Assembly (NCBI GenBank): GCA_051362555.1
Contig: CM120642.1
Span: 30,504,001-30,568,000, forward strand
DNA: 64,000 nt
Source of the DNA: Lingula anatina
Lineage: Eukaryota > Animalia > Brachiopoda
Direction: 5' to 3'
A program made the position numbers and the translations under genes. A model generated the notes under the pieces. That model saw only the letters and a program-made list of their open reading frames with translations, searched no databases and had not been told where the DNA came from. Each line of letters starts with the position of its first letter. Position 1 is the first letter of the stretch. Of the stretch, positions 13,916-61,432 are shown piece after piece.

Positions 13916-14583
13916 AAGTCCCGTCCTGGATTTTGACCCACTTAATTACTCCGTACGTCAGGCTAGCTCTGATTGTATCAGTCACCATATGTGTGTATAT
14001 TACACAGAAAGTCGTTTGTGTTCTACTTTTCTTTACTGTAACTTATTGAAATGCTATTGTTGAGGTGGCCATTACTCATCAAACATTGTTGCTTATACCG
14101 TGTAAATGCATTTGCACGGATTTTTTCCACGACTTCTCCACAAAATAGTTTTTCATATTCATTGAATGATCTCATTTATATAGAGTAGTGCTTAGCTTGT
14201 TCGGCAAGGCATTTTTGGTTCTTTTGTTGACGTCATAGACCTACATAAAACATTTCCAAAGCCATTTTTTATATTTGAAAGCCCTGTAATAGCACACAAT
14301 TAAATTCCCGTGTATATATTTAAATCGTAAAAAGAAAAAAACAGCACTTCAAGGTTGAAAAGTAAAATATACATCAGCAAAGGCTATAATGTTGCTGGTC
14401 CGTCTACAAACGAAGAACAGCTTGTCATCCGATTCCTTGGACTGGGTTGGTCTCTCTATGCATTTACATGTATTATTATTACATTTACATCTATTACTCT
14501 ATAAATAACGTTGATATTTGCACTAAGGCCACCCACTCACACCCACTCACGCAAAATGCTTCTAAAATTATACGATCACTTTC

Positions 14584-16104: not shown

Positions 16105-16139
<35 letters not shown>

Positions 16140-20795: not shown

Positions 20796-20852
20796 CTTGG
20801 CTGCTTGGAAGGAAAAGGAAGTCTTTTACGCATGCGCATATCAACATCCAAC
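20796..20852. promoter_or_regulatory. Compact bidirectional promoter for RPS18/VPS52, with TOP/TCT tract, NRF1-like palindrome and YY1-like motifs
   Basis: Minus-strand pyrimidine tract ttccttttccttcc (20820-20807). cgcatgcgca at ~20829-20838. caagatgg and caacatggc overlap the two ATGs. Confidence 0.75.
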
Positions 20853-22422: not shown

Positions 22423-22473
<51 letters not shown>

Positions 22474-24356: not shown

Positions 24357-24390
<34 letters not shown>

Positions 24391-27300
24391 AGATTGCTGG
24401 CAGCAGGCCTGTATGTGCACCATTTTCCCAAGATAATTATTATAGATTAGTGAGGAATTTGAGTTATTTAAAGATGCAAAACAACACTTGAATTGTATTT
24501 TAACAGCATTAAAAAATTTTATAGAAAAATCTTAATTCATAAACTGTTTTTGAAATGTATGCCTTAAGTGTAATGGCCTAAAATGTAAAACAATTATAAT
24601 ACATTGAATCACCTGTTAGAGAATAATGTTGCAAGCTTATTAGTGAAACACCTTCAATATTCTTCTTTCAGTTTGAAGAAGTAGCAGACAAAGATGACTT
24701 GATGGGTGCTGAAGACACAGCCAAGAAAGATATCCTTTTAGTATAGTAAACAATGCATTTAAAAAGTATTAAACTCTTTTTATTATGTAATTTTGTAATT
24801 GTCATATCGATTGGGACTTGTTTCTTAACACCACCCACGTTTCTTTTCCTCCAAGCCAGCTCTGAAAAATAGGTCCACCATCTTCACTGTGGGGAACAGG
24901 GGTGCTGTACTTACGTCAGAGTTAGAAGCTCCAATAATTGTTCCTCATGCTGCGCAGAAGTCAGATAAAAAGGTAACTGTATTATATATTTTGAGATACA
25001 TTGTGAATAATAAGTGATAAGTCTTGATTTCCCCATATAAGAACTACATGATAATGACTCAGACTAGTCACTTATTTATTTAGCAGGAATCTAAGATTTA
25101 CAAAATGTTTGAAAAAGATTTTAATAAATTTAAATTTGACTTTAGTTCATGGCTTAACAAGATTCGAGTGATGAAATGTAACATTTTACCATCTTCAACT
25201 CTTACAACAATATAAAATTATGTAATATGATTATAATGTTTTCTTTTTGTAGTACACCTTTGAGAGCCTCTTCCGTAGCCAGCACTATGCCCTGCTGGAC
25301 AACTGTTGTAGAGAGTACCTGTTTATTGTGGATTTCTTCATGGTGTCAGGGTCTGCAGCACAGGACCTTTTCAATGCCGTGATGGGGAAGACCATGTCCT
25401 CTTTTCTGGTAAGTGGGGGAAAGGGAGGGGGGAGGGGGGTAGACCCGAGAAGAAGACTGAGGTGCAAATTATCTGGTCTTTTGGCAGCTAGACAAAATTA
25501 GTGCAATCCTTGAAACCCCCCCCCCCCACCCCCACCCCCGAGTTGCAGACATTTTATGTGAAATTTGCAAACTAGGTACCTTGAAATTATAAAGAAAATC
25601 TGAAACTCCTACCCCCCTCCCCCCCTTTTATGGCATTCCTTATTTCTTTTTTTTCCTGTTTCAGAAACAGATGGACTTATTCACCAATGAATGTTTCGAC
25701 TCCATAGCAATATTCCTGTGCATACATATCATATACAGATTCCAGGTGGCAATGCACAAGAGGTCTGTCCCTGCTCTGGATAAGTAAGTACAACTGTGTG
25801 TAATGTATGCTAAATTGAGTACTCTGATATAATGATAATGAGATCTGAAGTTCATTATCAGATATTTTCAAGGAGACTTACAGATAATCACTCCTGGATA
25901 TGCAATTTTATAAGTCATCTAGCACTAAAGTCTTTGAAATTTTAATTTTATATGTACTGGTATATTTGCTAAAATATCTTCCACTTCTTTACAGCTTAGT
26001 ATAATTATGATGTTATTAAAAAAATTAAGAGTATTCCCATTTTAAAAAATCACCATTCTTTTCTTAGATACTGGGAGACATTGTTGGAGATACTGTGGCC
26101 AAGATTTGAGCAGATTCTTCATATGAATATACAGAGTGTGAAAGACTGTGACCCCTCCAGACTGGGGCCTATAGATACCAGGCCACACTATGTGAGTACA
26201 TGTGAATATACAAAGTGTGAAAGACTCTGATCCCTCCAGACCTTTTAGAAAAAAAAAAACGTGGACTGACTTATGGGAAAATTGTTATTTACTCCAGGAA
26301 AATTCATTTTTTGGCCAAAACAACAGTTATTATCTATTTAATACATGTAAGAGCTTCAGATATTAGCTCTTGACTGAGTATTTTGACAGCTTCAACCAGT
26401 ATCTATTCTTTGTATTTTCCAGATTGTTAGAAGGTATGCAGAGTTCTCAGCAGCTATAGTGGGTCTTAATGAGAGCTTCCCCAGCGAGAAAGTCAACAGA
26501 TTATTGGCTCTTCTGCAGGGGGAGGTAGAAAACTTTGTGCTGCGTATGGCTGCTGAGTTTTCGGCAAGGAAAGAACAGCTGATCTTCCTGATCAATAACT
26601 ATGATATGATGCTAAGTGTTATAATGGTAAGTTTCATCTCACTGACAAGCAATGGTCTCACATTCTTCCTTTCGCACATTTTCAATATGTTTATTAACAC
26701 TATTCTGAATACTTCATCAGACTGATTACAGTAAAGGAGAAAGCAGTGTAAATATGTTTGGAAGTCCATTTTTCAGGAAAGAACTCACGAGGACTCCAAG
26801 GAATCTGAGAGTTTCAAGGAACTGCTGGCAGCCAGAACCCAGGAGTTTGTGGAGGAGATCTTGGCCCCCCACTTCGGTGGCCTCATGTCCTTTGTTAAGG
26901 AGTGTGAAGTGCAGTTAGAGAAGGGGAACACAGAACAGCTGAAACACCAAGAAAGTAAGTGAATAGGAGAAGCTAGAGCAGGGATTTTGCCAGGGAAAAA
27001 GATTGGAATGAAAATGTTTATTGAAATTTTTTAAGTTTGACTCTACTTGAAGATTTCAGTAAATAAAAGTTTGAAGGGATTTATAGTTGATTAAGAGTAT
27101 TTAGAGTGGTACGTTTATCAAAAAATATTATCGTATAGATTATTTAAGAATTATTGAATATTCCCTTGTTTTGTGCAAATCTAAGTGGCGAGGTAATGTT
27201 TTTGTGATACTTTGTTTCATAGGGCGAGTTCAGCAGATAGTACGAGGGTTCAACTCCGAGTGGAAAAAGGCGATTGAATTGACCAATCAGGATGCTATGA

Positions 27301-27727: not shown

Positions 27728-29017
27728 GAGGTTGCCTCATCTTGATATATGAAGTCATTTCTGCATAAGTGAGGGCATGGTGTTGTCTTGATCTGTGGCG
27801 CCATCATGCAGCAATCAAGGAGATTACTTGCATCTTGATTTCTGATTATTTCATTGGTCATTATATATAAGATGACACTGATCGGTGCTGATTCTAAAAA
27901 TGGGCGTTTTCTATAGGAAACTTGTCTTGCAATATGTTATTGTGATTCAGTTTATCTTAAACAGTGGGTATTTAAAATTCATCGGTAATAGCCATAATGT
28001 CATGATTGAGATTAAAAGAAGAATGAAACAAAACTTTGTTAGTACAGCTGAGAGTCAAAAACTTCCTCCATACGGAGATAGTCTAAGTTGAGACAACGGC
28101 CTTGTGCTTACCAATAAAGGTGCAAAAATATTCAGAAAAAGGAGCATTCAAAACCAGTGCAATATTGAAATCATAATAACTTTAAAAATAGACGTAAAAT
28201 TTCTAAGATTCATATATATGTAAAAACATACCAAAATGACCACACACCAGTTTGAATAATTACAAGGTACATGTACTTTTAATAAGGTAGATATCATTTA
28301 AGTTTTCAGTCCTGTAGCCAGCATTTCAAATTTGGGGGGGGGGGGGGGGTCTTTTCATCATGAAACCAGGTGTACCTGGACCAAATGTTACCCAGAGCAG
28401 ACCCCTTTCCAGCAAAAATTGCAGTTCGGTTTACACCCCTCTGCCCTGGCTACGGGTTTGTGCTTTTATCCACTTTGAAGCACATGACAGTCACTGTTGT
28501 TATTCAGGGGATGTATTGATTGGCATATATATGACATGTTCCTGTATTCCTGAAATAAAATATTTGTGTATTATAAAATCACCTTTAAGCTTTTTCAGAA
28601 ACTGCTCAACACTCCTCTTATTGCACTAGCAGAGTGTAAATATTGTTTGAATAATTTACTGAAAATATGCAACCCCTCCAAATTTGGAATTTCAGGATTC
28701 GACAATACCATTTCAACGTCGCTGTAAGGGGTAACTTTTAAAATGAATAACGGTTTTGAAGTTCGATAAAAAAAGCACTTGTTCTGCTTGGCAACATTAA
28801 AAACGCCATCCAATTAAGAGATATCAACATATTTAGATCTACGTAGAAACTACGATGTGGGCCAAGAAAAATGCACCACGTTTTACGTCACACGGTTACT
28901 TCTCTTCGTATGACTTCAAAATTCTACATTAAATATATTTTAAACAACACAAAAATGTAATACTAAAAAATGTATACTAAATGGTAAATACGCATTTCAC
29001 TTCCAAAACGGCAGTTA

Positions 29018-29020
<3 letters not shown>

Positions 29021-29099
<79 letters not shown>
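29021..29099. repeat. (AT)n microsatellite
   Basis: Seen directly in sequence. Confidence 0.95.
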
Positions 29100-29103
<4 letters not shown>

Positions 29104-30629
29104 CGATCGATATTGGAAGATGGTGAACCGACATTGATTACTATCATCATTCTATTATCCGTTTATGGCACTTTTTCCGCCAAAACTTAAATTTTTCATC
29201 CCTCTAGACTCGAGAAGTGCTAATGTCGCTGTTAAGCAAATACATGTAGCACCTGTACTTTGGATCTAGGTCACGTTTGCTTATGGCTGCAACCATAAAC
29301 AGACAGGTAGGCCTATCTGTGGATATTTCCAAGCCAAGGAATTCTTCGAGCGATAAGACCGCAATGTTCAGAAATGAAGATCGAGAGCAGTTAAGGTACT
29401 AAACATGTATTTTTGTTGACTAATTTCAATGTACATAACCAAGAAAGCGACACAACTAACACACAGTTGCATTTTCGAATTTTACTTCCTTATCCGCCAT
29501 CTTAACGGTCACTGATACGATGACTTGACACAGGGCTCCTTCCCATTGAAACTATAGGTCTAAGTAGATAGATCCGACAGATTAACACATCTCTTGTTTC
29601 TAACGTCTCGTTAAATCATCCAAGACTCGTATTTTTTCTCAACACCAGAAAGAGGACTTAGTGGTCCTCCCTTTTGTTCGCATAACCATTTCAGATGTCT
29701 GACAGTCACTCAACAATTAAAAACCGTGTTCTCAAAGAAAACAAGATTTGAAGATACAGAAACAGATCGTTGGACAGACGACAAAAACGCTTTGAAGATT
29801 TTCTGAGGTCTATATTGCCTGGTAATTTTTCAAAACTACATGTTCCAGTCAAACAATATCGTAGGCCTATTCAACTTCAAAAATATATAATCTGCTTTTG
29901 CCTTCTTTTCGTTTAAGGTTTCCTTTTCAAAATTTTCTCGACAAATTGAGATTTCCGTTAAAAACAAACTATTTTCTACCCACGGATCATTGCTCGGTAC
30001 GTCCCTGCATGCGTTTGGATGTTCAATACCATTTTAGTTTTAAATGACCAGCCAGCCACAATATCACCGCCGTGCTTTCTTAATTGTTTCAGAAGGAAAT
30101 ATCAATATCCTACATTTAATTCAAAGATTTGATCGTTTGAATTAGGGAAGATGAGTATCTTTGCGTGGTATGTAGGCATAGACACAGAAATTAAGACTGT
30201 GGGACATTTCCAAACGTGGATAAGTTATCTTTTACTTTGCATCGATCAAAACAGCGGTATGTCTTGCTGTACAGTCACCAAATTACTTATAAAGACGCTG
30301 TTATTCTGCTGCTTTATCTGTTGATCCAATTTTATCTGCTTCCAGGCAAACACTCTATCATCATATCGTTTTGCACAAATAGAGAATGGGCGTAGGCTAA
30401 TACAACTGTGACCCGACACAAAGTACCGTCGTCAATAATTTACAGAATATTGTTCCAATACAAATTTTCACCTCTAATCTTTTGTCAGAAGCAATTAGAT
30501 TAAAAGATTGTTAAGGCTTAATTTGCTAAAAAAATAATTTTGAAAACTGCGTCCCATAATAGATTTATTTTATCTGAAATAAGAACACCATATATTGCAC
30601 GTAAGTGTTATTCGATATTCGCCGGTTGG

Positions 30630-30838
30630 TACATGTACACCCTGAGCTTCAGAGATAACTTGACACTAACCTCTTCACAATAGCCTATCTTCGTCGTGTC
30701 AAGTAACTTGACACGACGAAGATAGGCTATTGTGAAGAGGTTACTGCTGATTTATTTCAAGTAACTTGACACGACGAAGATAGGCTATTGTGAAGAGGTT
30801 AGTGTCAAGTTATCTCTGAAGCTCAGGGTGTACATGTA
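30630..30838. repeat. Long foldback palindrome with internal direct duplication
   Basis: tacatgtacaccctgagcttcagagataacttgacactaacctcttcacaatagcctatcttcgtcgtgtcaagt is followed by its reverse complement, and the inner part of the return arm is present twice. Confidence 0.9.
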
Positions 30839-31193
30839 ACACTTGGGGTCAAACTACTGATGTATTGCAGCTTCTAAAAGCAAAAGGCAAGCGTCAGTAG
30901 AATGTGTACCACAGTCACGTGACTTTTTGACACAATCATTTCTTCTACTTGATATCATAGAGAAATTCAACATTTTTTTTATTTCTTCAACATCAAATAC
31001 CACAGAACACGTGTATACTATATCACTTCTTATTGTAACGATTAGATAATTGTCTGAAATATGATTTACTGCTGATTTATTTCAATTTCGTATCCCTTTA
31101 TTTCCCTTATTGAACGTCAAATTAAATGTTTTGATATGACAGGGGGCACATGCTGCGGACAGTCTTAAGCGTGAAACAGGAATTTTAAGAAAA

Positions 31194-31231
31194 ATGAGTC
31201 TCGTCACCTCAGGTAAGTGGGATTAAATATA

Positions 31232-31286
<55 letters not shown>

Positions 31287-34200
31287 GGGGGGGGGGGTAT
31301 TACTTCACCACTGTATGTTAGGATAAATTGTATTTATTTATGTATTCTCTGAACCTTCTTAACGAACACCAGACAGTATTTACACATGTACATCTTTTTC
31401 ATTTTTCTTTTGACAGACATGGATCTTCAGAAAAGGAAAAAGCTTCCCTAGTTTATTGATGCGTCAATAAATTTTGAACGCATAGTAAGGGATGGCATAG
31501 TGTTTGTCGCTTCCGTTTTCATTTAATGCTCATTAATATTTTGCCGTCTATAAATCAAGATTACTTGAGCAAATGCTTGCTATTGATTTAAGCTGGTGCT
31601 GAAACACGTGCAGCAGAGGGCGTGAGGGTGTGGACTGACCAGCAACACAGTGTCACCGTCCAGGGCCAAACTCAAAAGGTTGGAGGTCGCAATGATCAGA
31701 GGACACTCGGCTGCTGTCTGGAGGTGAAAAAATATGGCATGGTGATGCAGGTTGTCGGAATCACATGCAGCCACTGGTCAATTGGCCAGCGTTGTTTTAT
31801 TCGGCACCAAGAGAGAGACATCGATATTGGTGTTGTTACCGGCAGATGTGCTGAGTGGACCGTTATAAGTCTTACCGATTCCTTTCTGGATATCTTGGAT
31901 GCAGGGCTGTGGTTTGGTAACGTTACGGAGGCCTTGGCAGGAGGATGGGGCGGCGTACGACGAAAACTTCCAGTTGGTAGCATAGTCAATGTGATGAAAC
32001 AAGATAACGTCGTGACGGCAAAAGTGACACAACACCACGATAGATTTTTTAACGTCTCCTGCGCTTCTACGGCTCATTTCACAGAACACGACTGCGGCAG
32101 TATTGTTGCAGTAAACAGCGTTTTATGCGGTGTGGTTGTACATGCCCCTAGTGACCAGGAAGCAGAAGTGGCCCATTTCACCGCTGTCCTGTCCAAAGTT
32201 AAGTCTGATCTGTGGTCACACTCAGATTTCACCGTGGAACTGGCAACAGGAGCAACACGTCTTAATGCTGGTAATAATACATCAAAGTTGATGTCGTGCC
32301 TGATTTTACTATGATTATTTTTATATTAAAATAGGAATGCAAAATTACTGCACATTAAATCTGAATGTTTAAGAAGTTGTAAAGAAAATACTAACACCGT
32401 TTACTGCTGTTTATGCGCTTAATTGATGTATATAGTGAAAGTCGTTTTCCTTTCATTTTAGAAATTAAACCTGTGCTTGAAGTCGACATGGCGGAATTGG
32501 ACATGGCGGAATTGGTGAATCATGCAGATTGTTGCCAGGAAAGAAGTGCCCAGTTGCCTGCTGATTCCACTTCGTACCAGCCACCTCCAGTTTCGTCTTC
32601 TGATGGTACATCAAACTTTAATTGAACTTGATATATATATTAAAATAAATTTCACAGCATTCTATGTTTTAAGTTTTCCAATGGCAAGCGTTGTAACTAT
32701 AATATTTTTCCAAATTTTGCGGGTATACATATGTCTGAAGCAGTTAAGCTTAATTAGCTATCCGTGGTAGGAGAGTAATAGTCAAGCTTGTCGACCATTA
32801 CGGTAGAGTCTCCCCCGTTGTATTAGTTCGCAAAGAAGGTTTTAGCTTCATTTTCTCTATATCTTAATATTGTGTGATTTATTCTATGCAGCAGCTAAGA
32901 ATTTTATACTCTTGTCCTGTCGTATATGAATATACAATTGGCTATCATTTTTTTCGTTTTTTGCAGAGACCGCAGAGAAGTGTTTTAAGCAGCTACTTTT
33001 AAAGGGCACGAGAAAGGAGAAACAAATCAGACTAATGGTCGTTGGTCCTCCGAAAGTTGGCAAAACACATATTATAAGACAACTTTTTGGTCAGCAGTAT
33101 GATCCGGAGGGAGACAAAAACACCAATGGAGTTGTGGTCAACTTCGGCGCTTGCGTCATCAATGAAGAATCTGCAGTAACTTGGAAAGCTAAATCAGGTG
33201 CTTTCTTTCATTAGAAGTAGTGTATTTCTTATGATAATACGCCTGTCGAGCATTAATTGGCGAGTGTAACTAAGATTTATTTTTTTACTTTATTTATTTA
33301 GAAACATGTTTTGTGATTTTCTTTTGCAGCCACGATCACTTCTTCAGATATAAGGACATTAGACTCGCCAAGTGCTTTCTTAGCGTTTGATATTTTCTAT
33401 CTCCCGAGTGTGCAACAGAGAACTGATTTTTATCCTGGTTTTTAACATTATGTAGAACATTCGTGCATGCCCTATACTTTTGTGTAGTCAAAATTATTTG
33501 AGACATTTCATAATTGACGGTTTAGCTTTAGAAAAATTTTTCGAGAACGCGCTAATCTTCTTGACTTTATTTTGTTCTAATTCTATGCACCATATTATGG
33601 TTGGATAACAGAGGAAGAACACGCAGTCACACAAGCTAGGTTGGTTGCGAAAAAAATGATTTCTGTTGAGGCGAAAGAGAAAGGTAACTTTATAAGCGTT
33701 TACTGGTAAATAAATATAATCTCAGCGCTAAAGCGAAATGATTTACGATAAGATTGCTTTTGAACGATGAGCATTATTTTGTTCTCTCTCTACAGTGCCG
33801 CTGAAATTTTAGCATAGGCTCTACTGTGCTGAGCTGCGGGTTTTTCATGCGCCCTGTCGCGGCTACCATGGAATATAATTTTCGTATATGCGATGTTTGC
33901 TTTTTTTTAACAATAGAACACTGCCCTGTGATGTAGTATTGCGTTCGAAGGGCTGAAATAATTTTTATGTAGGCCTACGTTAAAAAATATCATCCCACAG
34001 TATGTATAGCTTGATTACTTTAAACTTCTGATCATTGCAGTGGCAACTGAATGGGAAGAAATATTGATTTGTCCCAAGTGCCCGACTGTGGTTGAGCCAG
34101 GTTTGAAAGTGTGTGAAAATTGCAGTACACCTATTGCAAGGAAAAGTATGTGCTCTGTTTACAATCCCTCTTTTGATTTCCCACTGTGATTTACAGATTC

Positions 34201-37200
34201 TATTCTACATGTAAATTTTAACCGCTTAAATGTGCATATAAGTAGTGCTAATACTACATAGCAGATAAAAAGCCCTGAAATTATCTTTGATCCCGCATAT
34301 TAAATATTTTTTCCAACAAGAACCGTATTTGTCTGCCGCAGTAAAATAAAGATTAAAGCCAAGGTAGAGTATTAGAATCAAGGTTGGGCCTCCACTACTC
34401 TCTACCAGGACCATAGTTGGATTTTTCACTCAATATCTACAGATATGTCCCTGGCTAATTCATGACACTTTTGGGGTTGAGAAAGTGCACTTAATTAAAC
34501 TGTGGCCCTGGTAAATGGGAGGTACCTCTTGATTTAATTTCATTTATGTCTGATAATTAATGGGTCTACACTTCCCTCTACCAGGGCGACAGATAGATTT
34601 TTTACAGATATTCACAGATTTGTCTCTTGATAGATAGACGGTCAGACCTAAAATGACGTCTATCTATCTATCTGGAGACCTAGGCCCTATCTGTGAATAT
34701 CTGTAAAAAATCTATCTGTCGCCCTGGTAGAGGGTAGGTCTACACTATATAGCTACTAAGAATCTTTAGTCCCGTAATATAGATTTTCCATGAAACAATC
34801 TAACAATAAGATCTGATTATTATTATTATACCTTCATACAATATATATTGCTAAAAGTGCCGGAGGTGGCGGATGAATCAAGTATCCAAGTAGACCGTGA
34901 GGACTGTAATAAGCTGGAAGACGGTATCGCTGATGGTAGGGAAATTCTGATAAAGTTTATCAAGTTCAATATTTAGTAATATCCAATAACACAAGCACAT
35001 GTTTTAGATCAAAGGCGTGTCAGATTTGTCGTGGCAAGTTTTAATTACAAGCAGTTCTAGTAACATGGCTCCATAATACTGATGATAATAATATGTTATT
35101 CTATGGCTTCCTATTCTGTTCAAATTATAGACCGAGGTTGCATGTTGAGCAGGGTAGGTTTACTGTCAACACTAGTAGGGCCTACTGTTGAAACTTTGGG
35201 AGGCTAATCACAAATTTATCTACGTATGTTTTCTAGATTACGTTTATGCAATGGTGTATGAACAATACAAGTCGAAAATAAACTCTAAACCATGCTCCAA
35301 CTGGATGCTAAGCAACTGGTTTAGTCTAAGAGAGGGTGGCAGCAGCCACGTTTCCGGTACCGAAAAAGACACGATCAGATTATCAGTTTGGGATTTGGGT
35401 GGTCAGCATGTCAACTGCAGTATCAACCAAATAATCCTCACTGGTAGGGCTATTTATTTACTGGTCGTTGACTTGACCAAGGGGCTTGACCAGCCAATGA
35501 ATATTGAGGAAACGGGTATGTGTGGCAAGGACCGAGCTGTGGTAGGGGTTCCACGGACCCTTGGTGGTAATTTTTAACTTCTGTAACCTTTTTAAAGATA
35601 ACTTTACCAGTGAAACTATGCGTACCGACCTGGTTACGTTTGTAGTTGAAGTGGTCATGAACTTTTTGGTATGGGATGAGGATAGTCTTGTAAAATCTAT
35701 TTATTTTGCTTCTTTTGGGGCATATGATTATCTGAGGGAAGTTTGGTTTTAAGATATGATGGATGATATTTATTGGCACTCATTATAAAATTCACAGTAT
35801 GAAAATAGGAATTGAATATGTAATGAGAATATGGGTAAATCCTCCATTGATATTGCATCTGTTTGCATGAGTATTAAACTCGCTTTTAATGTGCTTACGT
35901 TATATCTTTCTATTTAAGGTTTTCTGGAATTCTGGATGAGGTCAATCCATCAAAATTCTGTTGGTAAGGGGAGTCTCCCTGAAGAAGCAAAAGATAATGA
36001 CAGACTTTGTCCTTCTATCATCATAGTTGGAACTCATAAAGACAAGGTAGTTGACTATGAACAGTTGTATAAAATATTTCATATATAATTGTTTTAAGCA
36101 ACATGCATGCATGCGCACTCTTGATAAATGCTGTTGAATGTTTCGGACAGTTTGATCAGAGATCGACTTGAATAAAAATACATTACAAACAAAATACCCA
36201 TTGCATAAATATCATGGATAAAAACTTTTACACAAAATTAAAAAACACGCCTCTTTTGAAACGTCATACACTTACATGTACATTTAATTAGTGTACTTAC
36301 AAATGGTCATTTCTGCGAAAATTAATGCTGCGCGTGTTTTCAATCTCCTCAATTCCAGTGTGCCACAAAATTTCATAGACCCATTCAGAACATGAAACAT
36401 GGCATCAAGGAATAATGTTTGTTCGCTGACTGAGATTTCTATCATTACCACAATCCATCAATACATTTTACAATAATCTGGGCCATTTTCTTTCAAACAA
36501 AGACTACCAGCATCTTTTTTAAATAAGATATTTTAATTTCCCATCTTTATTTTTATTGATTCAAGGTTACCCAATCTACAAAAGATGAGCGCTTAAATGA
36601 AATCCGCAAGTATCTTGAAACAAAACCACATTACGATCAAATACACGGAGTCTTCTTTGCGGTCGACAACACTGATATGGACGATCCCGCCTTACAGGAT
36701 ATTAGACAAGCTATAGAGGAGATAGCTAAACAACAGACATATTGGGGTAAAAAAAGACCAATTCGCTGGGTGCTTCTCGAAGAAAAGTTGCGTACCATAT
36801 CCAAGGAATGTCCATATGTGCATTTTAGTGAAGCTGAAAGCCATGCCAAAAAGTATAATATCAGCAAAGACGAACTGTACATTTGTTTGTCCTATTTTCA
36901 TGAAATCGGTGTGTTCCCATTTTATGATCATGGAAAGTTGGGGGCTATAGTCATTTTGGACCCGCAGTGGCTGTTCAACGCCATCAAAACTGTACTCACT
37001 CTACCACATTGCGAACACATTAAGCGTCATTCTCAGACAAAATCTTATTTGAAAGAAAAGGCTATACTGAGAGAGAAGTTCGTGAACCTTGCTTGGAAAA
37101 ATGACGACAGACTACTGGAGAATAAGAACCTGTTGCTTAAACTAATGCAGCGTTATGATCTTGCCTATCTGTACACACCCAGAAATCTAGACCTTGCGCC

Positions 37201-40200
37201 TCCATGTGCTCTGGGGGAGAGACTGTTTTTGATCCCAAGTCTTCTTAAGGTAGCCGAACCGAAGGATTTCATTCTCGCCGATAACGCTGTTATCAAGCCC
37301 ATTTATATTCAGTCCAAGTATGACTTCATACCCCAAGGACTATTCCTCCGTCTTCTCGTGGGTATGCATAAAAAAATGTTTCTCCAAAGTAACCTTCTAT
37401 TTGGCGATTATGCATGCTTCCGGATTCAAGCACCAAATTCCAACAGTGCCACAGGAAGAGCCTCGGCCCACGTGCTTGAGATGAAGTATGACGAATATAG
37501 AATTAAACTGAAAGTAGGGACATTGTCCCCCGGCGAGAAATTATATACGCCCTGCAAATCAGCTCTGTATGCTAGGAACATTGTTGTACAAAAATTTGAA
37601 GGGCTTAGACGTAAGCACTACCCTCATCTGGAATGGGACTTCGTGATTGAGCTAAATTCGTCTGGGGAAAGTGTTTTCGTACCCATAGATGAAGACAATG
37701 TACTCCAACAAGGTTACTTAATTTATCAAGGACAAAGACAGACGGTCAATACGAGTCTTTACTCGATTTGGTTTCAGAGAGAAGATGAAAAAGTATGTTT
37801 TTTTTTCATTTTATTTCAATTTTAGGTTTATATCAGTTTATGAACAAGTATGTAAACGAATGGAATTTTTTTCATATTTTAATATTAAAATATCTAAAAG
37901 ATGTATCTTTAAAATCAACATGTAATAAATGATTAATAATGTGAAACATGTATGCTTCATTAGCTGTTATTAAAAATATATAAATGAACATTTTTTTAAT
38001 TTTTCAGTGTCAGGTGTTTCCAAAGAAAGGTAAGCGTTCGGGGCCCGCTGAATGGCCCTGAAATTTTTTGGTATTTTAGAGGGCGACTGGTGCCATTTGG
38101 TATCGTTTAGAACTATGATTCAGCTAGTCAAATTTCTAATTTCAAGAGGGAACCATTGGGGGGGGGGTCAGGATCCCCCTGACAACCCCTTAAATCCGCC
38201 AATGATGTAACTTAATTGATATGTTTGATAAAAGGCTTATTCAATTTAGTTTTCTGCACATTCCTAAAGGTAAAATTTGTGCCTCGTTGTTAATAATACA
38301 AAAAGATACCATTTCAAATGCATATTTCCTATTTAGAAGAAAAGGAACAAGAAAGTAAAAATCAGGCTACATTAAAAGCTGCACCTGTGAAAGGCTCATC
38401 CACCCCTTACACATGTATAGGTATATAATTTTTGTCACGGGTTATGAAAAGTGAATGAGCACTCTTAATAAATGCATTGTTATTTTTGCCAATGTATACA
38501 ATCTAGCTAAAATAGGTACACCCATGCATAACAACAAAATACAGAAAATTGCAGCTTTAATGGTTCTTTCATACTGAACCGAAAAGGAAATTTAGATACA
38601 TAACCATTTATTGCATGTCGTGAAGGATTGGAAGAATGTGAAGAAGTTGAAGTTCCACCTTGCAAAGAAGACGTATTGACTTTTGATAGCCTAACGGTGA
38701 GGTTACAACATTTATTATGTAATTTTCGTCATACCTATCGTGAAAATAAAGAACACTTTATGATTACAACATTTAGAATTAACATGCATTTTAACTTGCC
38801 TGTTATGGACAAACGTGTGAAATGTCACTACAGCAAAGTCATTTGTATTTCAGTTGTGCATATTGTATACTGAACGATATTGTTATTTCAATGCATACGT
38901 GGCAAAATGAGACAATGATATTATCATATATTTCTATTATTTACACTGTATAGGTCTATGACTGTTTAACAGAGAATAGAGGAAGGGCTGTGATTATAAA
39001 CAATGTCAACTTTTACACTGATGATAACCCCAAGTATGAAGATAGATACGGAACAGAGATAGATGTACAACGTTTGACTAAACTGTTCGAAAAACTACAT
39101 TACCTTGTTATAACATATACAAATCGACCAGCTTGGGTAAGAAATATGCTTCTCATGTGTAAATTTCTACTTTGTGCCTTATATGACAAACACTGGCTTA
39201 TATACCTAAATTCAACTCTATTTGAAATTACATTTGACAGATCAATGATTTTAGTCTGGTAACAGCATTTGAGGAAGGTTAAAAACATTGAATGAATGAT
39301 GGTCTATTTTCCAGAAAATAAATAAAATTGCCTTGGACGAAGGCCAATACGACCATGGGAAGTATTCTTCTTTTATAATGGTGATACTGAGCCATGGGTC
39401 TAAGAACACAGTTATTGGTTCGGATGGCGCACACATTGCATATGATCAAATACGACAGCCATTCACCACCACTAATTGCCCGTCCTTGAAGGGAAAACCG
39501 AAGATGTTTTTTATTTCCGCATGCCAAAGCGGTGAGTAGAAATGTAAACATCACCCTTGGAAGAAAAGTTTTTATGCTAATGTACAACTGGCAACAACAG
39601 CCTGGGTTTCCAGTTACGTTGAAATATACATATACTTCCACCCTTATTGGATAGTACACCAATAAAGGACGCCCCCCCCCCCCAATAAATAAAAAAAAAA
39701 GAAATAATCAAGTGTTGAGATGTGATTATAATTATTATAACTGGTATATATTTTTGTTTTATAAACCAGTGAATTACCTGTACCAGAGATGTTTTTGTTT
39801 CCATTTTGTTCGTATTGTATGAGTGTTTCTGTATGTACGTTGGCCTACCCGTCTGTCAGGGTAAAGCGCTTAAAAACTATTTTTCTTTCATAAGAAATGA
39901 AAGCTAGCTTTTTTTATGAACAGATCAGAGTGCCAGCGGCTCACCCGAAAATGAAGCACAAGGCCCATCTCAGTCCACCAGGTTGAATGCTTCCTCAGTT
40001 TCTGGCGCCAGCGGAGATCCACCAGATGATGCTGACATGATACTGGCAACGGCCACCACCCCAGGTGAGGTGAAAGTATAGTTAGTGGCACCACTATGAT
40101 AAGCATGGGTTAGGCTCTGGTGTAGTAGTGCTATTTTCAAATACTAAAAAAACTTACATAACTGCAGGTTTACATTTAGAAAAGCTGCTAATGAATGAGG

Positions 40201-40782
40201 CGCATACTCTAAGATAACCACTGGGCTTGATTTATTCCCCTAAAAGAATTCTTATATTTCAATATGAACGTGGATTCTGGTAATTCTTTATATTACCAAT
40301 CATATTGGATATAATAATACAGAGTAATAAATTATCCTTATAGGCAAAGTGTCATGGCGGTCCACTGAAACGGGTACCAGATTCGTCAAAAGTCTCGTGA
40401 AAGTATTCTCAGCCAAGGCATGCGAGGAAGACCTGGCATCCATGTTGACTTTGGTATATGAATGAAAATGTTTTTAACTCAGAAGTTGTCACTACATATG
40501 GAATAACTAGTCACTAGTAACAATTATTCAAATGCAATTATAAGTCAAGTCCGATTTGGCTTTTCAGCAAAGAAACGGTAATAATGAGGTAGCCTTTGCA
40601 GCACAGGACAATTTTGTTCATTAAACACGTTTTCTTTTTCACAGGTTAACAATGAGGTCGCCAGCATGACTTCTGGTGGGCGGAGTCAAGTTTCAAACAT
40701 ACAGTTGAACACTCTGAGAAAGAAACTGTTTTTTTGTCCTGGATACTATATGCAGGATGGGGAGTTGAAACAGTATAAATAG
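31194..40782 (+). CDS. Roco-caspase fusion protein: trypsin-fold protease-like domain, Roc GTPase (with Zn ribbon insert), COR, caspase (C14); ~1325 aa, 18 exons
   Basis: Exons 31194-31212, 31593-32270, 32462-32605, 32967-33197, 33612-33683, 34041-34145, 34858-34935, 35237-35566, 35919-36046, 36566-37792, 38008-38029, 38337-38420, 38626-38696, 38954-39136, 39315-39531, 39924-40064, 40344-40453, 40645-40782. All GT-AG and phase-compatible, 3978 nt, no internal stop. Roc: IRLMVVGPPKVGKT, WDLGGQ, AIYLLVVDL, FWMRSI, IIIVGTHKD. COR: WGKKRPIRWVLLE, LSYFHEIG, VILDPQWL, FLIPSLL, IPQGLFLRLL. Caspase: RGRAVIINN, DRYGTEID, ILSHG, CPSLKGKPKMFFISACQS, DMILATATTPG, SWR, TLRKKLFF. Confidence 0.85.
34572..34736. 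mobile_element. Foldback MITE with 9-bp TSD in an intron of the Roco-caspase gene
   Basis: ~47-bp TIR ccctctaccagggcgacagatagattttttacagatattcacagat. ggtctacac at 34563-34571 and 34737-34745. A degenerate relative lies at ~34400-34520. Confidence 0.8.
38035..38204 (-). mobile_element. Partial copy of the 17757-18001 MITE family
   Basis: Reverse complement matches ggcggattta...ttagaaat(g/t)tgactagct...accaaatggcacc...aaataccaaaaa. Confidence 0.7.
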
Positions 40783-40860
40783 AGTAATAAAAAACCTTTA
40801 AAAAAACTTTGTGTAAAGAGAAGTTTGGATAAGAGAAGTTTTGGACACGGTGACAAGCAG

Positions 40861-41023
40861 CAGGGGCGGCTCCAGAGATTTTTTTCTGACAGTCTTCCTT
40901 TTGATGGTCCATCCTCCATTTTTGACAGTCTTCCGACAGAAAAAAATTAGATACCCGTCAATGAAAACTTGATAATCTGATCATCTCCTGGAAGGTCAAG
41001 AAGACGGCCTAAATCCGCCCCTG
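40861..41023. mobile_element. CAG-terminal MITE with 5-bp TSD just 3' of the Roco-caspase stop
   Basis: caggggcgg...ccgcccctg, flanked by agcag at 40856-40860 and 41024-41028. Confidence 0.7.
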
Positions 41024-42640
41024 AGCAGGACACTTAAACTCTTGTTTTGCATCCACTTCAGAAATAAACGGCCTTGCTATTGGAGCTTCATAGATTTGGT
41101 GTTGTTATATCCCATCTACCTAAGTCAGGGAACGTCCTTATAAAAAAACTTAGAAACATAAAACCTTTTTATTATAACAAGAAAATAAAGTAAGAACGAT
41201 AAGAGAATGTCTTTTTATAAGAAACCAAAGTAAAGTTGTTCAACTGCTATCCTCCTTCCACTGCAGTCCAATGCAAAAGATACGCGTTGCTGTGGTGCAT
41301 TAAAGATGTTTTTAAAAGGATGTAAAAGGAAAAAAAGATATAAAAATATGTTGTTAAGTTTCTCTTTCATATAAAAAATACGGTCCCAAGATATTTGAAA
41401 ATCCAGTACATCCCAATTTTTGTTTCCCCTTTCTTTTCAGGCCAGAGAGCCAATTGCTACAAGGCCGAGTATTGCCAAAGTTGTCAGGAATTCCCATCTC
41501 CCTCTACTGGTGAACAGAAAAGAAAAAAAAAGCATAATACTAGACCAAAAACAGTGATTCCAAATACTTAATATTTGGTACCTTTGTTAAATTTTAATAT
41601 TTAAAAATATTAGTGAATGCATCAAAACTTAAGAACCCATGGGGAATACTTAAAATTTTTACTCATAGTATCAAAAAAAAAAAAAAAATGAATCAAGTAA
41701 CAATTTCTAATTTTTGTATTTGTTTATATTCACAGAAAATTGTTGCAAATTATTTACACATTTACAAAAACTTCTAAAGCAGCTTGATATAAAGAAATGA
41801 TAGGATTCATACTTCAACCTCAACATAGAAGACTTCATGCCATCTTCACCAATCTCAATGAAATGAAGCTATAAAAATTACTTTCAAACATCAAAACAAA
41901 CTTGCTACAGATCATTCATTCTTAAATTTAAAATGTCATGTATATTATTACACTTACGCAGGTCAATGTTGTATCTAACTCTAGCATCTACATTCAAAAT
42001 ATAAAGTCCGCCTCTAGTCATAACATTGGGGCAAATTAATTTAACACAAAATCAATTTCATCCATCAATTTAGTGCAATAAATAATACAATACTTGCTGT
42101 TTGCTCAATGATATAATGTCAACCACACCAACCAATCGGCATTCACCCAATCCGCATTCACTCGGGGTGATAACTTGTGAAACGTGATTTCTATTCCAAT
42201 TATCTGAGATCAGTTGACTATTTACAAGCATATCACAAATGAACTGGACATCTGCATATATATATTTACATACCATAAACATTGTGTACAAGTTTCATAA
42301 CACATGCCTGAATACCCTTTCTGAATCTTAAAAATTACCTGCTTCATCTACTTTCATTCAATACAAATAAACAATTCAGTTCTGCTTTATAGGCAAAGCT
42401 GTATTTCTATTCCCATGGACTACTGCTATTATTTCATATTTCCAATTGTATTTTTACTAGTAAATCAGTAATGAAGTCTCTCTACACTGATATCAGGTTA
42501 AGCTGCCCATTGCTGTATAAATGTATCAAGCAATTCATATCAATTTAAGGCAAATATAAAGGTACAAAAAGGCTCGCTTTTTTTCACCCCCCTTCCCCTT
42601 AAAAACACTTTAATCTAGGCAAAATGGATAATACCCACAC

Positions 42641-44193
42641 TCAATTTGATGAGTTTGTCCTGCTTTCATATCTCTGTAAAGCATCTGTAAAAACTTTACC
42701 AGTTTCCACAAGCAAAGAGTCAAATATGGCATCAGCAAGCTGAAATTTCACAGCTAATTCATCGTCATCGTAATTTACCCATGAAGGTTCTTCTTCTCGT
42801 AACTCTTGGACTAAGATCAAATCTACCAAATCTTTCTTCTTGCGCCCTCCTAGTTTAACAGTCTTCTCATCCATCTTAGGTCTTTTGGAAAGACCTGTTA
42901 AGTTCAACACATGATGCTCCACCACTTCCTTCAAGTGATCACATGTAGTTGGCGGTGCCTTGCCCTTGTAATAGCGGTGCTGAATTTTTCGTGGCTTTTC
43001 CCAAGGTTCAGGTGTCAAATCCTCCTCATCTGCATAGATGTCTTTGATTAAATCACCAACAAGTTCAAATATCATCTTTTTGTAAACTCTCCTACTTGTA
43101 GCCTCTATATCTTGCCCTCTGTCCTCAGATGTAAAATAATCACCAGGTGGCGTCACAGAGTCAAAGGGCTCTCCATAGCGCCTAGCAGCCCAGAAAGCAT
43201 CGACTGCATTCCACGTTAATTTGATCACCTCCTCTTTTTTATGGGGGACGGCATAAAACAGCTCTTCTGTTAACTTTTGGAGATCCAACTTTGAGTACTC
43301 CTGCTTCGGTGCTACAAAAAATAAAATAAAATAAATAATATTAATAATAATAAATAAATAAATAAAATAAAAAAATATATATATATTGATACCAATCAAT
43401 TATTACTGCCAGTAGGGGGCCAATTAAGAAGTGACAATTTGTACCCTGAAAACCATGATCCAGACTCAAAGAGCATAAATATCTTTACTTTACAGGTACA
43501 ATATATGCGACCAAACTTGAATAATAGTGTGTCTTATTCCTGTACAGATGTGTATCTTGAGCATGGCAGATAGTAGTAGGTGTGTCCTAGGGGGTCACTT
43601 AAAGGGGGGGGGGGGCGCCACTGGGGATATTCATAAATCTGGGGTGGGAGATTTTAAGATGGGGCACAATTCCAGTGGGGACCACAGGCGCCACCTTCAG
43701 TCAATAACACCCTGTTCTTTCGTGTATACCTGGCAAGTTTGGGTGAGGTTAGCCCTACAGAAATGTGGGTAACAGAAGGCCAATACACCATAATGGTACA
43801 TAGGATATTATCTAAATTCGTTAGTCTGCCCTGTGCAATGTATGATTGGGTGTATAAATGTATATGGAAAGGGGAATACAGCAGAGTGTATCCAGTTGGA
43901 AGACAGGGGTGGGAGAGGGTGGGACATTGATTGCCCTGTTCAATGCAGCCCCTTGGGTAAGTTTTTAAAGACAGGAGCGTGGGTTGGGTGGATGTTTGAG
44001 TGATAGTACCATGCCAAATGCAGTCTTCCAATAGTACAAAGTGTACTCAGAAATATAGGGACGGTTAAAGACAAAATAGGCATGCAGCAATATTTGGGAT
44101 TGGCGGGAGGGAGGGGGGCATGATTACAATACACAACAATCCTAATTTCCTAATAAATCGAGAAGGCCTGTAGGTGTTTGTGTGTGTGTGTAC

Positions 44194-44257
<64 letters not shown>

Positions 44258-47200
44258 AATAAGAAGAGAGAGAGAGAGAGAGGGGGGATGTTCTCCTTAC
44301 CTAGCTCCATGGCAGTACCTGGGTAGGGAGGAGGTGGCTTGTCTGGTATCTGTCTCTGAAGACTAAGCCCAAAGTCGTCATCCATCCACTCGTTGCCTCC
44401 AAACTCCTCCAGTCCCAGCAAATCCAGAGCAGATATGCCATGCTGTGGGTTAGATTTAAACTATTGTTATAACATTATCAATAAACTCCCTCCTGCACAT
44501 AATCCGCAAGTATAATAACACCCGCAAACCACATTTTTACTAGAGCACTGTACATCAGAGCATTCTAAGGATGGGTCACTGTACCTCAGTAGCAGGGTGT
44601 ATGGCAGTAAAGAAGGGTAGATAACTTCAGTGTACTATAACACCCAAAAACCACACTGTAGATGTGGGGAAGGGATCTTTTTGTATGTGTAGATTACTAC
44701 TGTTCCAGTGAAAAATGCAAGTCTAGCAAAGCACTAAAAAAATCTAATTTTTGTTATTTTTTCTGACACTTGTCCAGCATATGTTTGTAAAATATATCAT
44801 AGGAGTGCTTTGATGACGGAGAGGCTGTATCAGGAGCAATATAGTTTAGTTTTTCTAAATGTGACCAGATACGTAGCTACTGAAAACACTGGAGTAACAA
44901 GAAACCAATAATATCAGACATGCAGGAAAAAAATTGGGTAAAACCACAAGTCACATGTCTTTCCTTAAACTCACCTGACTTCCTCCAAAGACAGGTGACA
45001 CTGGTCTGGCAGGAAGTGGGGTGTCTGCTTGCAACTCCTCCCTCTCTCTGATGGTGACCCTTGAGAACAAGTCCTCATCTGTAAGGTCAACGTCTGGGGT
45101 CAGCTTGTCCACGGCCACTGGACTCTCTGGATCTGGGGTCACCGGGGTTTTGGGGAGATCTTCAGGGGTATCTGGCTTTAAAGAGGACTGTTCAGTTTGA
45201 GTCTCAGCTGCAAATTTTTCAGTTTGTTTCCTTCGTATGCTGAGCATATCTGAGATGGCATCATTGAGCAAGTCGTTGAGGACTGTATTGGTGGTGATGT
45301 CCTTTTCTGAAGTTTTGGCACTATCTTCACTGGGTTTGGGCAACTGTGGCACAATGTCGGCTTTCTGAGCAGGTAGAACTGCAGGGGTCTCGGGAGAGGC
45401 CTGTAGCTCTCTCTGGAAATCTTCCTCAAAGTCTTCGACACTCTCATCAAACTGTTCCTGTTCTTTTGTTAGCAGATCCAAGAATGGCGTGTGTGGTTTC
45501 TCTTTTCCCTCGGACTCCTTTTCCACAATTTCCTTGGAATCATTTCTACCCTGTGTACTGTTGCCCTGCTTCTCTGCTATTTTTCCAATAACAGTCACAG
45601 AATCCTTGATAATCATTGCAGTAAGACTATCTGTTATTTTATCCACTACAGTGTCAAGGTTTCTGGCTGGTGCTGCCCCCTGTTGTCTGGTATCCTCTGG
45701 GACAGAATCTCTAGGCGTCACAGCAGTTGATGACAAAACATGTTCATCCACATCTCTTGGGGATGTTTCTTCAAACTGTTCAACAGCTTGTGCAGCAGAG
45801 CTAATTACCCGCTCCAGCTCACTATCTGTGGCAACGGACACCTCTTCCTGAATAGATTCCTCTTTCTCCTCACTTTTAACAGAAATTGCTTCCTGACCTT
45901 CACCTCTCAACTCCCGGCCCTCACTTCGGGACTTTTGACCCTCACCTGCAACCTCTGACCCATCAAAATCATCTGAATATTCTGGTGATTTTGGTGGCTC
46001 CTCAGGGGGAACTTCTTCTGTGACAGTGTGTTCACTGGGAGCCTCCTCCTCCTCAATATCTTCTTTGTCCTGTCTTGCTTTTACTTCAAATTCTGCTGGA
46101 AGGTGCTGACATCTATCTGCAGTCACAAACACCCCATGCATTGGTTTACAGTCAAAGTAATGGACACCATTTTTTGTCCCATCCCCCTCTCCTTCTGCTG
46201 TATCCAGCTCCACACCTGCCATAATCCCATCTGAAAATAATGTGGTGCCTTTGTACAAAAGTCTCCCTGGTTTGGAGCTGTCTATCAATACCCTGTCCCC
46301 TATGCTAAACCGTGTGAGAGGCTCTGCAAGGGGGGTGCTGGTGTCCAGTATCCTAGGTTCTTCATGGACCAGCCATGAGGGTGACTGAACTGGCGTGCGA
46401 TCTTCATCCTCTACAGCCCCCTTGGTGCGTGACAAATCCAGCATCTGTCCCGACTGCTCACTGTCCTGACTCTGCACTGATAAACGTTCGCTGACCTCAT
46501 CCTCGCTATGGATGCTTTCGCCAACGCTGGCAGTCTTCTCATCTTGTTGGACAGACCTCTGAGAATGCCGCGAGCTGGCTCTAGAAATGTCAGATTTCAC
46601 AGATTTTTTCTCTGAGGAAGATGAGAAGTCATCTGAATAGCTGGCTTCAGAAGCCTCGCTGGCTGACCTCGACCTAGTGCCCTTTGACCTTTCACTATCA
46701 GCCTTCGAGACTTCTGATCTCTTGCTCCTCTCAGAAACTTCAGACTTGTGGCTTACATCTGATTTTCTACTTCTAACTGATGACTCTGACCTCTGACTCC
46801 TCCAAGACTTTTGACTGTGTGAGGAAGCAGCCGAATGCTGACTCTTCACTGACCTTTGACTGTGTGTTGATGCGTCTGATTTCTGACTGTTCAAATCAGC
46901 TTCACTTTCAATGTCTTCTTGTATTTCTGACTCCACAGACTTGAGAGATTTTTGCACCTCAGTCTGCTCCTCTGTTGCCTTGGTGAAGTCCTCCCCATAG
47001 TCATACTCCTCAGTCTCTGACTTTTTGGTTCCATCCTGTGACTTTGACCTCGCAGTGTCCTTCACTGACCTTGACCTCTCAGAGATTTGTTCAGCAACAC
47101 TTCCTCCTCCAACACCATCAAACTTAAGAATCATATCTCCAGAAGACTTTTCTGATGCTTCACTTCTAGGGGAGAAAATGTCTTCCCCTATTTCCTCACT

Positions 47201-48110
47201 TATTTCTGATCCAGACTTTGCCAACTCTTCTGAGATTGACCTTGACCTTTCTTCAGCTCTGGATTTTGATTCTTCACGTGTGGGGCTACGCTGAAGACGT
47301 AGGGTATCTGGCAAGAACTTGGGCAATGATGAGGGTCGTGTTGGGGTCGAGGCTTCAGAACGCAGAGGAGATTGGTATTTAAGAGTATCTGAAAATATAA
47401 GACAATATAGGTGTGAAATGAGTTTTTGTGACTTATTCACTTTTTAAAATTAAACATACAGGTTTTATCTAAGAAATATTTCGACAAATAAATATGAAAC
47501 TATCAGTTTCAATACCAAATCAATTTAAACAGAAAGAATTATATGTCTACACTGCTTATCTGCAGGTTACACATTAATCATAGAATGAAATAAGTGTAAA
47601 ATCTTGATGAGTAAAATCTTGATGAATCCTTGCAAGATCTTCAAGTAAATGCAGTGGTCAGCTTACCATCAAGTTGAGGAGAGGGTGATAGCCTTGGTGA
47701 TTGTGCGGTAACTGGGGTGCCGGGTTCTCCGCCTTCTTTCCCCTCCTCGGCGATGGAGCTCTCTCTAGATTCACTCCTCTGCTTCACAATCTCAAGCTGG
47801 GGCACATCTTCGTGCTTGTGCAATGTTTTCTTTTCTGCAACTCTGGGTTGTTTGATCTGAGGTTTGACGGACCCCTTGACTGGTTCTAGTTCTAGTTCCT
47901 TGGTCAGGTCCTGTTTTATTTGGACAATTACATTGTCGTAGGCCTAAAAAAGAACATACTCAAAAAATTGGAAAAAATCATTTGTCAAGAGAATAACCAT
48001 GGGAGCAATTTAAAGACAGAGAAGAATAATCTTATAGCATAACCTTAGCTTAAGAAAGTGATTTTCAACTTTCACGTTAAAACTTGTTCTGATGCATTTA
48101 CACACACACC

Positions 48111-48169
<59 letters not shown>

Positions 48170-61345: not shown

Positions 61346-61393
<48 letters not shown>

Positions 61394-61396
61394 TAT

Positions 61397-61432
<36 letters not shown>

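Follow-up and report, generated by a model that had tools for sequence, protein, structure and literature searches.

In a 64,000-nucleotide (nt) window of the brachiopod Lingula anatina (GCA_051362555.1, contig CM120642.1, positions 30,504,001 to 30,568,000; the window is this whole stretch, and positions below count from its first base), we identified a gene at 31194..40782 on the plus strand whose predicted product is a Roco protein, with the Roc and COR domains standing in place of the CARD or DED prodomain of a caspase-8/9-like caspase. We give roughly an even chance to the reading in which this protein acts as a cell-internal immune or death switch through COR pairing. Our own assembly from the window joins 18 exons across 17 introns, all of them GT-AG, into a 3978-nt coding sequence with a single open frame of 1325 amino acids (aa), from the ATG at 31194 to the TAG at 40782, and reading through any of the 17 introns leads to an in-frame stop. 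A single fused gene explains this exon chain far better than any other reading, as judged from the sequence. Its features are as follows.

31194-31212, 31593-32270, 32462-32605, 32967-33197, 33612-33683, 34041-34145, 34858-34935, 35237-35566 and 35919-36046, plus strand: exons 1 to 9, from our own assembly.
36566-37792, 38008-38029, 38337-38420, 38626-38696, 38954-39136, 39315-39531, 39924-40064, 40344-40453 and 40645-40782, plus strand: exons 10 to 18, from our own assembly.
31593..32270, plus strand: exon 2 (phase 1-1), an orphan beta-rich domain, aa 7-232, with a trypsin (PA-clan) fold predicted from language-model features.
31772-31774, 31853-31855 and 32093-32095, plus strand: predicted triad His67, Glu94 and Cys174 of exon 2, assigned by eye.
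32462..32605, plus strand: exon 3, an acidic, Ser-Pro linker between the N-terminal domain and Roc, from sequence and the RefSeq match.
33044..33067, plus strand: Roc G1 P-loop, aa 307-314, with Lys313 and Thr314, and with the G2 Thr333 in the same exon, from Pfam and alignment.
34041..34145, plus strand: exon 6, a four-cysteine zinc-ribbon-like module (Cys392, 395, 406 and 409) in a long insert between Roc G2 and G3, from the RefSeq match and a Pfam DZR match (E 0.002) below the family cut-off.
35392..35439, plus strand: Roc G3 (DxxG, aa 495-498) and the switch II helix, from alignment with 16 relatives.
36032..36043, plus strand: Roc G4 (THKD, aa 591-594), from alignment.
36758..37246, plus strand: COR-A, aa 660-822, a full-profile Pfam match.
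37247..37789, plus strand: a diverged COR-B-like region, aa 823-1003, the part expected to dimerise.
38008..38696, plus strand: exons 11 to 13, a 59-aa linker from COR to the caspase that holds no methionine, from our own assembly.
38978..40731, plus strand: caspase p20/p10, aa 1072-1309, with Arg1094, His1151-Gly1152 (39393-39398), Cys1194 (39522-39524) in the motif SACQS, and Ser-Trp-Arg1249, from Pfam.
40786..40791, plus strand: AATAAA, a likely polyadenylation signal 4 bases past the stop codon; the hexamer is frequent in this AT-rich DNA.

An earlier note on this DNA had proposed 18 GT-AG exons joining in phase into a frame of about 1325 aa, and our assembly agrees with it, as does the RefSeq protein XP_013412607.1 (L. 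anatina LOC106175244), a predicted record that we found by searching with exon 10. This record has the same 1325 residues with no gaps and 9 substitutions relative to the window model; the window gene is, on this sequence comparison, an allele or very close copy of the RefSeq gene. With leave-one-out scores, 16 of the 17 splice donors ranked at or above the 91st percentile among 529 other GT sites, and 15 of the 17 acceptors at or above the 93rd percentile among 525 other AG sites, a control that is partly circular, as the sites had been picked by appearance. The exons are richer in GC than the introns (44.5% against 32.5%). Exons 1, 3, 5-7 and 11-13 are supported by the RefSeq match and splice signals, without homology, and each exon from 2 to 8 is symmetric (phase 1-1), a run of the kind expected of exon shuffling.

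To the whole protein, Pfam assigns Peptidase_C14 (positions 1-233 of 233, E 4e-47), COR-A (1-143 of 143, E 3e-19) and Roc (E 3e-9); on single exons, it found exons 4 and 8 to hold Roc, exon 10 to hold COR-A (E 4e-20) and exons 14, 15 and 17 to hold pieces of the caspase. The Roc and COR-A matches lie above the family cut-offs and COR follows directly after Roc, the arrangement that defines the Roco (Roc-COR) family. Alignment with 16 relatives, 13 of which form one tight group, placed a G1 of the form GxxxxGKT, the G2 Thr, the G3 DxxG and the G4, all four of the Roc motifs claimed before, and the predicted gene product is a Roco family member. The two Lingula paralogues known to us (the second is described below) have very long Roc-COR branches, of 3.6 and over 4 changes per column; a tree of this region was dominated by long branches and is uninformative as to origin. 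We also discarded a placement of CtRoco His554 in switch II, as this residue lies on helix alpha3.

The caspase has caspase-8 and caspase-9 as its best solved relatives in the PDB (E 7e-35 to 2e-32), and on this ground we rejected a horizontal acquisition from bacteria. The His-Gly and Cys dyad and two S1 arginines are kept in both Lingula paralogues. Pfam searches of the whole protein at E up to 0.05 found no CARD, DED, Death or other death-fold family and no leucine-rich repeat (LRR), in line with the earlier proposal that Roc-COR replaces the CARD/DED prodomain, and the 1325-aa protein has no membrane helix or signal-like stretch. Between residues 901 and 1146 the chain lacks methionine, which leaves the caspase without a separate start in the exons as modelled. 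Since it carries neither CARD nor DED as a prodomain, we do not file the predicted protein as a canonical initiator caspase.

A Lingula paralogue, XP_013401300.1 (872 aa), also holds Roc, COR and caspase. Its alignment with the window protein is unbroken from G3 to the last residues, with 32% identity across 852 columns, rising to 50% in the caspase, and its linker from COR to the caspase is shorter; because the COR-caspase fusion has been kept through this divergence, it is unlikely to be an accident of annotation. In a word-index search for long caspases, the two Lingula proteins stood alone among 1088 candidates, a result that is no measure of rarity, as the search missed the Owenia and Mytilus proteins that follow. 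A ROC-prodomain caspase, CAH1787638.1, has been published for Owenia fusiformis (PMC11463336), where it is labelled ROC only, called species-specific and proposed to interact with a kinase, with COR unmentioned in the portion consulted. In the supplement of the same paper, we found Roc-COR-caspase by eye in two Owenia sequences and in Mytilus californianus XP_052096691.1, which is labelled ROC. These share with the Lingula protein, again by eye, Roc, COR-type sequence, a C-terminal animal caspase p20/p10 and the lack of CARD and DED; Roc precedes p20/p10 in the window protein, as it does in the lophotrochozoan ROC-prodomain caspases. The COR-caspase joint thus recurs, by sequence, in four other proteins (the paralogue, two from Owenia and one from Mytilus). 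Unlike the window gene, all three Owenia and Mytilus sequences have, by eye, no trypsin-like N-terminus. XP_013412607 is absent from the consulted text and supplement of PMC11463336, the 24 Lingula caspases that the paper lists include neither of the two proteins, and a bivalve caspase survey (PMC7836458) makes no mention of ROC, COR or a GTPase in the portion consulted. The second Owenia sequence, CAH1786849.1, which has no prodomain label in PMC11463336, appears by eye to carry a Bcl-2-like domain (BH3/BH1/BH2-type motifs) before Roc-COR and a caspase with QACQG; this chain would be striking if true, and may be a gene-model fusion.

The N-terminal domain encoded by exon 2 is an orphan. Searches recovered only the domain itself among 1689 word-matched candidates and 1.84 billion representatives, and the same sets held no second protein that joins it to Roc; Pfam, NCBIfam, PHROGs and PADLOC gave no match, PDB sequences nothing meaningful, and plasmids and phages nothing. 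Its language-model features in the ESM Atlas, by contrast with its sequence, have near neighbours, at 0.95-0.96 to Trypsin_2, Trypsin and Nal1_C clusters and 0.93 to Peptidase_C3, where 0.96 is reached by shuffled proteins about once in 100 under a calibration made for whole proteins rather than protein parts. The named clusters are Trypsin_2 (35% of members), Trypsin (10%), a mollusc-rich Nal1_C (16%), Peptidase_S55 and a viral Peptidase_C3 (100%); all 10 of the 10 best family matches fall in one clan, and the 161-165 of 256 features shared lie in the range of distant relatives. By eye, the order of motifs is like that of trypsin-fold proteases, and the His67-Glu94-Cys174 set and its spacing are reminiscent of enterovirus 3C. 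MAFFT placed Cys174 on the family's catalytic Ser column and His67 off the His column, and His172 occupies the usual position of the oxyanion Gly. We consider a trypsin fold probable for this domain and an active protease somewhat doubtful, both as predictions from sequence; of the protease-like N-terminus claimed in the earlier note, a plausible fold survives on language-model features, with no sequence profile or confident structure behind it, and the enzyme remains a candidate. The domain was likely gained as one phase 1-1 exon.

How the parts would work together can be modelled on better-known proteins. Initiator caspases are activated by dimerisation (PMC12052993). In the bacterial Roco of Chlorobium, dimer formation requires the C-terminal half of COR (PMC6337361); the protein is dimeric in the empty state, partly so when bound to guanosine diphosphate (GDP), and monomeric with guanosine triphosphate (GTP) (PMC5714945). 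By analogy, we infer a monomer-off, dimer-on scheme in which cytosolic GTP would keep the Lingula protein monomeric and its caspase off, and hydrolysis, loss of GTP or a gathering of molecules by the N-terminal module would bring COR and hence the caspases into pairs, so that activation would probably occur in the GDP-bound or empty state rather than the GTP state. The N-terminal slot of bacterial (PMC8195603) and algal Rocos holds LRR sensors; a trypsin-fold domain in this slot would serve as sensor, bait or second cutter.

Several points weigh against this reading of a GTP-gated immune or death switch. The fusion is known as a gene model, from predicted transcripts. COR-B, the expected pairing surface, is below Pfam significance (E 0.037), so that of the COR and complete caspase p20/p10 of the earlier note, COR-A and Peptidase_C14 stand on full-profile matches and COR-B does not; against our own profile from 15 relatives, the COR-B-like region scored 14.7 bits, with a shuffle maximum of 4.0 and 0 of 500 shuffles as high. 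The on/off polarity is taken from one bacterial Roco. Domain company is what suggests an immune role; the neighbouring genes are housekeeping genes, and the window holds no cluster of gene copies. For the Roc-COR proteases that we found, no experiment in the literature consulted ties the bound nucleotide to the activity of the protease, and the consulted portion of the report on the Runella Roc-COR protease discussed below (10.1101/2021.06.07.447441) does not mention GTP. The model of the paralogue XP_013401300.1 lacks G1; either the model is truncated or the P-loop is truly lost, and its longest contig is 23.9 kb. For the N-terminal domain, a bacterial Nal1_C-type profile (75 of 121 loci kept, on the condition of 140 or more residues upstream and no X; motif in frame in 120 of 121; 63 of 67 aligned sequences matching Pfam Nal1_C) scored exon 2 no better than shuffles, which did as well in 400 of 2000 cases with HMMER, 10 of 200 with hhalign and 98 of 1000 in an ordered-block test. 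Both structure predictions of exon 2 are too poor to judge the fold: AlphaFold2 on the single sequence gave a predicted local distance difference test (pLDDT) score of 33 and a best Z of 3.7, with 19 of 50 structure rows trypsin-fold by title and fold class. The other run, on an alignment taken over from the bacterial loci and in part out of register, reached pLDDT 55 and a best Z of 3.4 with no coherent match, and was discarded as circular and uninformative. The two remaining points, a changed switch II and a changed caspase pentapeptide, each lead to an alternative.

Switch II has been described as the best conserved part of Roco proteins and as the element that passes the nucleotide state on to COR (PMC6337361, PMC11052575). 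The window protein differs at 5 of the 8 switch II positions that are invariant in the 16 relatives, compared with 3 of 30 such positions elsewhere (Fisher P 0.005), an excess that weakens at looser thresholds (P 0.06 at 15/16 and 0.35 at 14/16 conservation). This change weakens the case for GTP gating of this copy, which is, from its sequence, doubtful; the change counts against a canonical switch, not against Roco membership, and may have loosened coupling to GTP in this copy. In the alternative that follows, the caspase would be active and Roc-COR a passive scaffold, the trigger being the N-terminal domain as it binds or is cut by a pathogen protein or cuts the chain in cis. Such a division of labour would fit the wear of switch II in this copy when it is canonical in the paralogue and, by eye, in the Owenia and Mytilus sequences; it would also fit an N-terminal domain known from this copy only, with viral 3C proteases among its Atlas neighbours. 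Yet this copy retains G1, G2, G4 and the core of G3, its excess of switch II changes reaches significance at the strictest threshold only, and N-terminal catalysis is itself a prediction, with His where the oxyanion Gly is expected. We regard uncoupling from GTP as unlikely, although it fares best among the alternatives.

The caspase pentapeptide in both Lingula paralogues is SACQS, not QACxG, a difference at 2 of 5 positions, and the Gln replaced in QACxG belongs to the substrate pocket. A canonical QAC(R/Q)G stands in the Mytilus sequence and in the second of the two from Owenia. Together with the many canonical CARD and DED caspases that Lingula retains (PMC11463336), the changed motif raises the alternative of a weak or narrow caspase with a non-lethal role, as a signalling scaffold or a regulator (cFLIP-like, or a processor of a single substrate). 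Differences from the RefSeq allele point the same way: 6 of the 9 fall in the caspase domain (38954-40782), which is 19% of the chain (binomial P 0.002, a post hoc value, and the differences may form one haplotype block), with 3 in the inter-subunit linker, one of them removing an Asp. Conservation of the His, Gly and Cys and both S1 arginines across about 50% divergence argues the other way, as does Drosophila Dronc, in which the same Gln is replaced and which is active all the same, cutting after Glu besides Asp (PMC2180229). The change from Gln to Ser before the catalytic Cys likely relaxes the preference for Asp, as in Dronc, by our prediction, and we take the caspase to be probably an active enzyme with relaxed P1 specificity; a non-lethal or pseudo-enzyme role seems slightly less likely again than uncoupling from GTP.

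It is improbable that exon 2 and the exons on either side of it, or those of the caspase, lie on separate or alternative transcripts, leaving the three-part protein rare or absent: AATAAA occurs inside introns 3, 5, 6, 9 and 10, so that shorter isoforms may exist, the linker exons lack homology, exon 2 has no second Roc partner and the three-part protein is known from predicted models, but an independent predictor gives the same 18-exon product with all 1325 residues, including the 19-nt first exon and the 22-nt exon, the exon phases agree throughout, no AATAAA falls within the 191 nt of intron 2, and the COR-caspase joint has its four other occurrences.

The gene lies between VPS52 and a CAP-Gly/DUF4378 gene. 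Upstream, RPS18 (minus) stands head to head with VPS52 (plus) at about 19600-27000 of the window, a pairing presumably as in the human major histocompatibility complex region. The minus strand carries a trypsin-family (S1) protease at ~800-2900, two tandem glutathione S-transferase (GST) genes at ~9100-16400, which we take to be GDAP1-like, and the CAP-Gly/DUF4378 gene at ~42600-62000, presumably CEP350-like. Two near-perfect inverted repeats resemble miniature inverted-repeat transposable elements, at 30627-30841 (85-nt arms, 98%) and 34571-34737 (49-nt arms, 98%); the former lies ~350 bases upstream of the start codon and holds a 58-nt direct repeat. Rfam had no match in 28000-43000.

The core of this protein is not new: Roc-COR-caspase is known in outline, with its function in animals predicted. 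The earlier note could name no characterised protein of this architecture; that it is without precedent is not supported, as the ROC-prodomain caspase of Owenia, Roc-COR-caspases in the supplement of that paper and a gasdermin-activating protein labelled Roc-COR-CHAT were already published. New here are the orphan N-terminal domain, the SACQS motif common to the paralogue, a switch II that is worn, and a fusion that recurs in three phyla; in the literature searched we found no description of a trypsin-like domain, Roc-COR and caspase in one chain, and a Lingula immune survey (doi 10.1016/j.dci.2017.12.021) may describe these genes. Annelids, molluscs and brachiopods are reported to be without APAF-1 (PMC11463336). 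A Roc-COR prodomain would offer a platform-free route to the activation of initiator caspases, and it recurs in all three. For LRRK2 it is disputed whether Roc-COR gives its output as a monomer or as a dimer; a caspase fused to Roc-COR and activated by dimerisation would give Roco biochemistry a direct read-out of that state. Trypsin-fold cysteine protease chemistry is typical of the 3C-like proteases of RNA viruses, and an active enzyme of this kind at the front of the chain, if true, would be unusual for a cellular animal protein. In its boldest form, which we hold tentatively and think unlikely to be right as a whole, the protein would be a two-protease tripwire, with its own 3C-like (His-Glu-Cys, trypsin-fold) protease in the Roco sensor slot of one chain with a caspase of altered specificity, and would belong to a class of Roc-COR caspases, overlooked in lophotrochozoans, that need no adaptor and exchange their front modules: a trypsin-fold one in Lingula, a Bcl-2-like one in Owenia and none in Mytilus. 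Such a class would be convergent with the bacterial gasdermin activators of Roc-COR-CHAT type.

Compared with known systems, the Lingula protein shares the p20/p10 fold, the His-Cys dyad, the S1 arginines and a long prodomain with initiator caspases 8 and 9, and differs from them in having Roc-COR instead of DED or CARD and in the SACQS motif. With LRRK1/2, DAPK1, MFHAS1 and the Chlorobium tepidum Roco (PMC6337361, PMC5714945, PMC11052575) it has in common Roc G1-G4 and, with a diverged COR-B-like second half, the COR tandem, whereas it lacks a kinase, LRR, WD40 or Death domain and has a long G2-G3 insert with a zinc-ribbon-like exon and a changed switch II. Exon 2 has its nearest language-model neighbours in Nal1_C, Trypsin_2 and Peptidase_C3 of the PA clan, with a similar order of His, acid and nucleophile motifs and a C-terminal helix, but it differs from them in having no significant sequence similarity, in a predicted nucleophile Cys for Ser and acid Glu for Asp, and in its His for the oxyanion Gly. 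Elsewhere in animals and algae, Roc-COR occurs with TIR and Death domains in Aplysia (PMC9334734), and brown algal Rocos have been proposed as immune receptors (PMC11378527). Amphiura filiformis XP_072025888.1 (1894 aa) combines CARD, a RIG-I helicase and a RIG-I C-terminal domain with Roc-COR-A-COR-B-Death-ZU5, an RNA sensor in the front slot of a Roco if the gene model is right, and Acropora palmata LOC141889063 holds NACHT, Death and Roc-COR in one chain. By their sequences, effectors are swapped around Roc-COR in Amphiura, Acropora, Aplysia and bacteria.

Other parallels are prokaryotic. As leads only, the Atlas placed aa 281-1325 nearest to a COR-A/COR-B/CHAT cluster (0.83), and the leads nearest to the core (0.76-0.83) include a cyanobacterial COR-CHAT cluster besides several Roc-COR clusters rich in molluscs. 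A protease from Runella that carries the label Roc-COR-CHAT cleaves a bacterial gasdermin and kills cells, and requires its His and Cys (10.1101/2021.06.07.447441); it shares with the Lingula protein Roc-COR and a C-terminal caspase-like His-Cys protease, and is an experimentally established activator of cell death. It is, however, a bacterial CHAT that cuts after Leu, with a dedicated neighbouring substrate gene and no trypsin-like N-terminus in the portion of the report consulted, whereas the Lingula enzyme is an animal C14A caspase. Prokaryotic LRR-AP-GTPase(Roc)-COR conflict systems carry at least 24 C-terminal effectors, caspase and trypsin among them (PMC8195603), so that the likeness to prokaryotic NTPase-plus-protease death systems drawn in the earlier note is real. 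Both have a Roc-COR core with an enzymatic effector C-terminal to COR; the prokaryotic proteins have N-terminal LRR sensors, of which the Lingula protein has no family, and their trypsin is C-terminal and an alternative to the caspase, where that of Lingula is predicted to be N-terminal and additional. As the Lingula caspase is closest to caspase-8/9, its fusion to Roc-COR is likely convergent with the prokaryotic Roc-COR caspases, and by analogy the protein would work like the prokaryotic LRR-Roc-COR effector systems without being a member of them.

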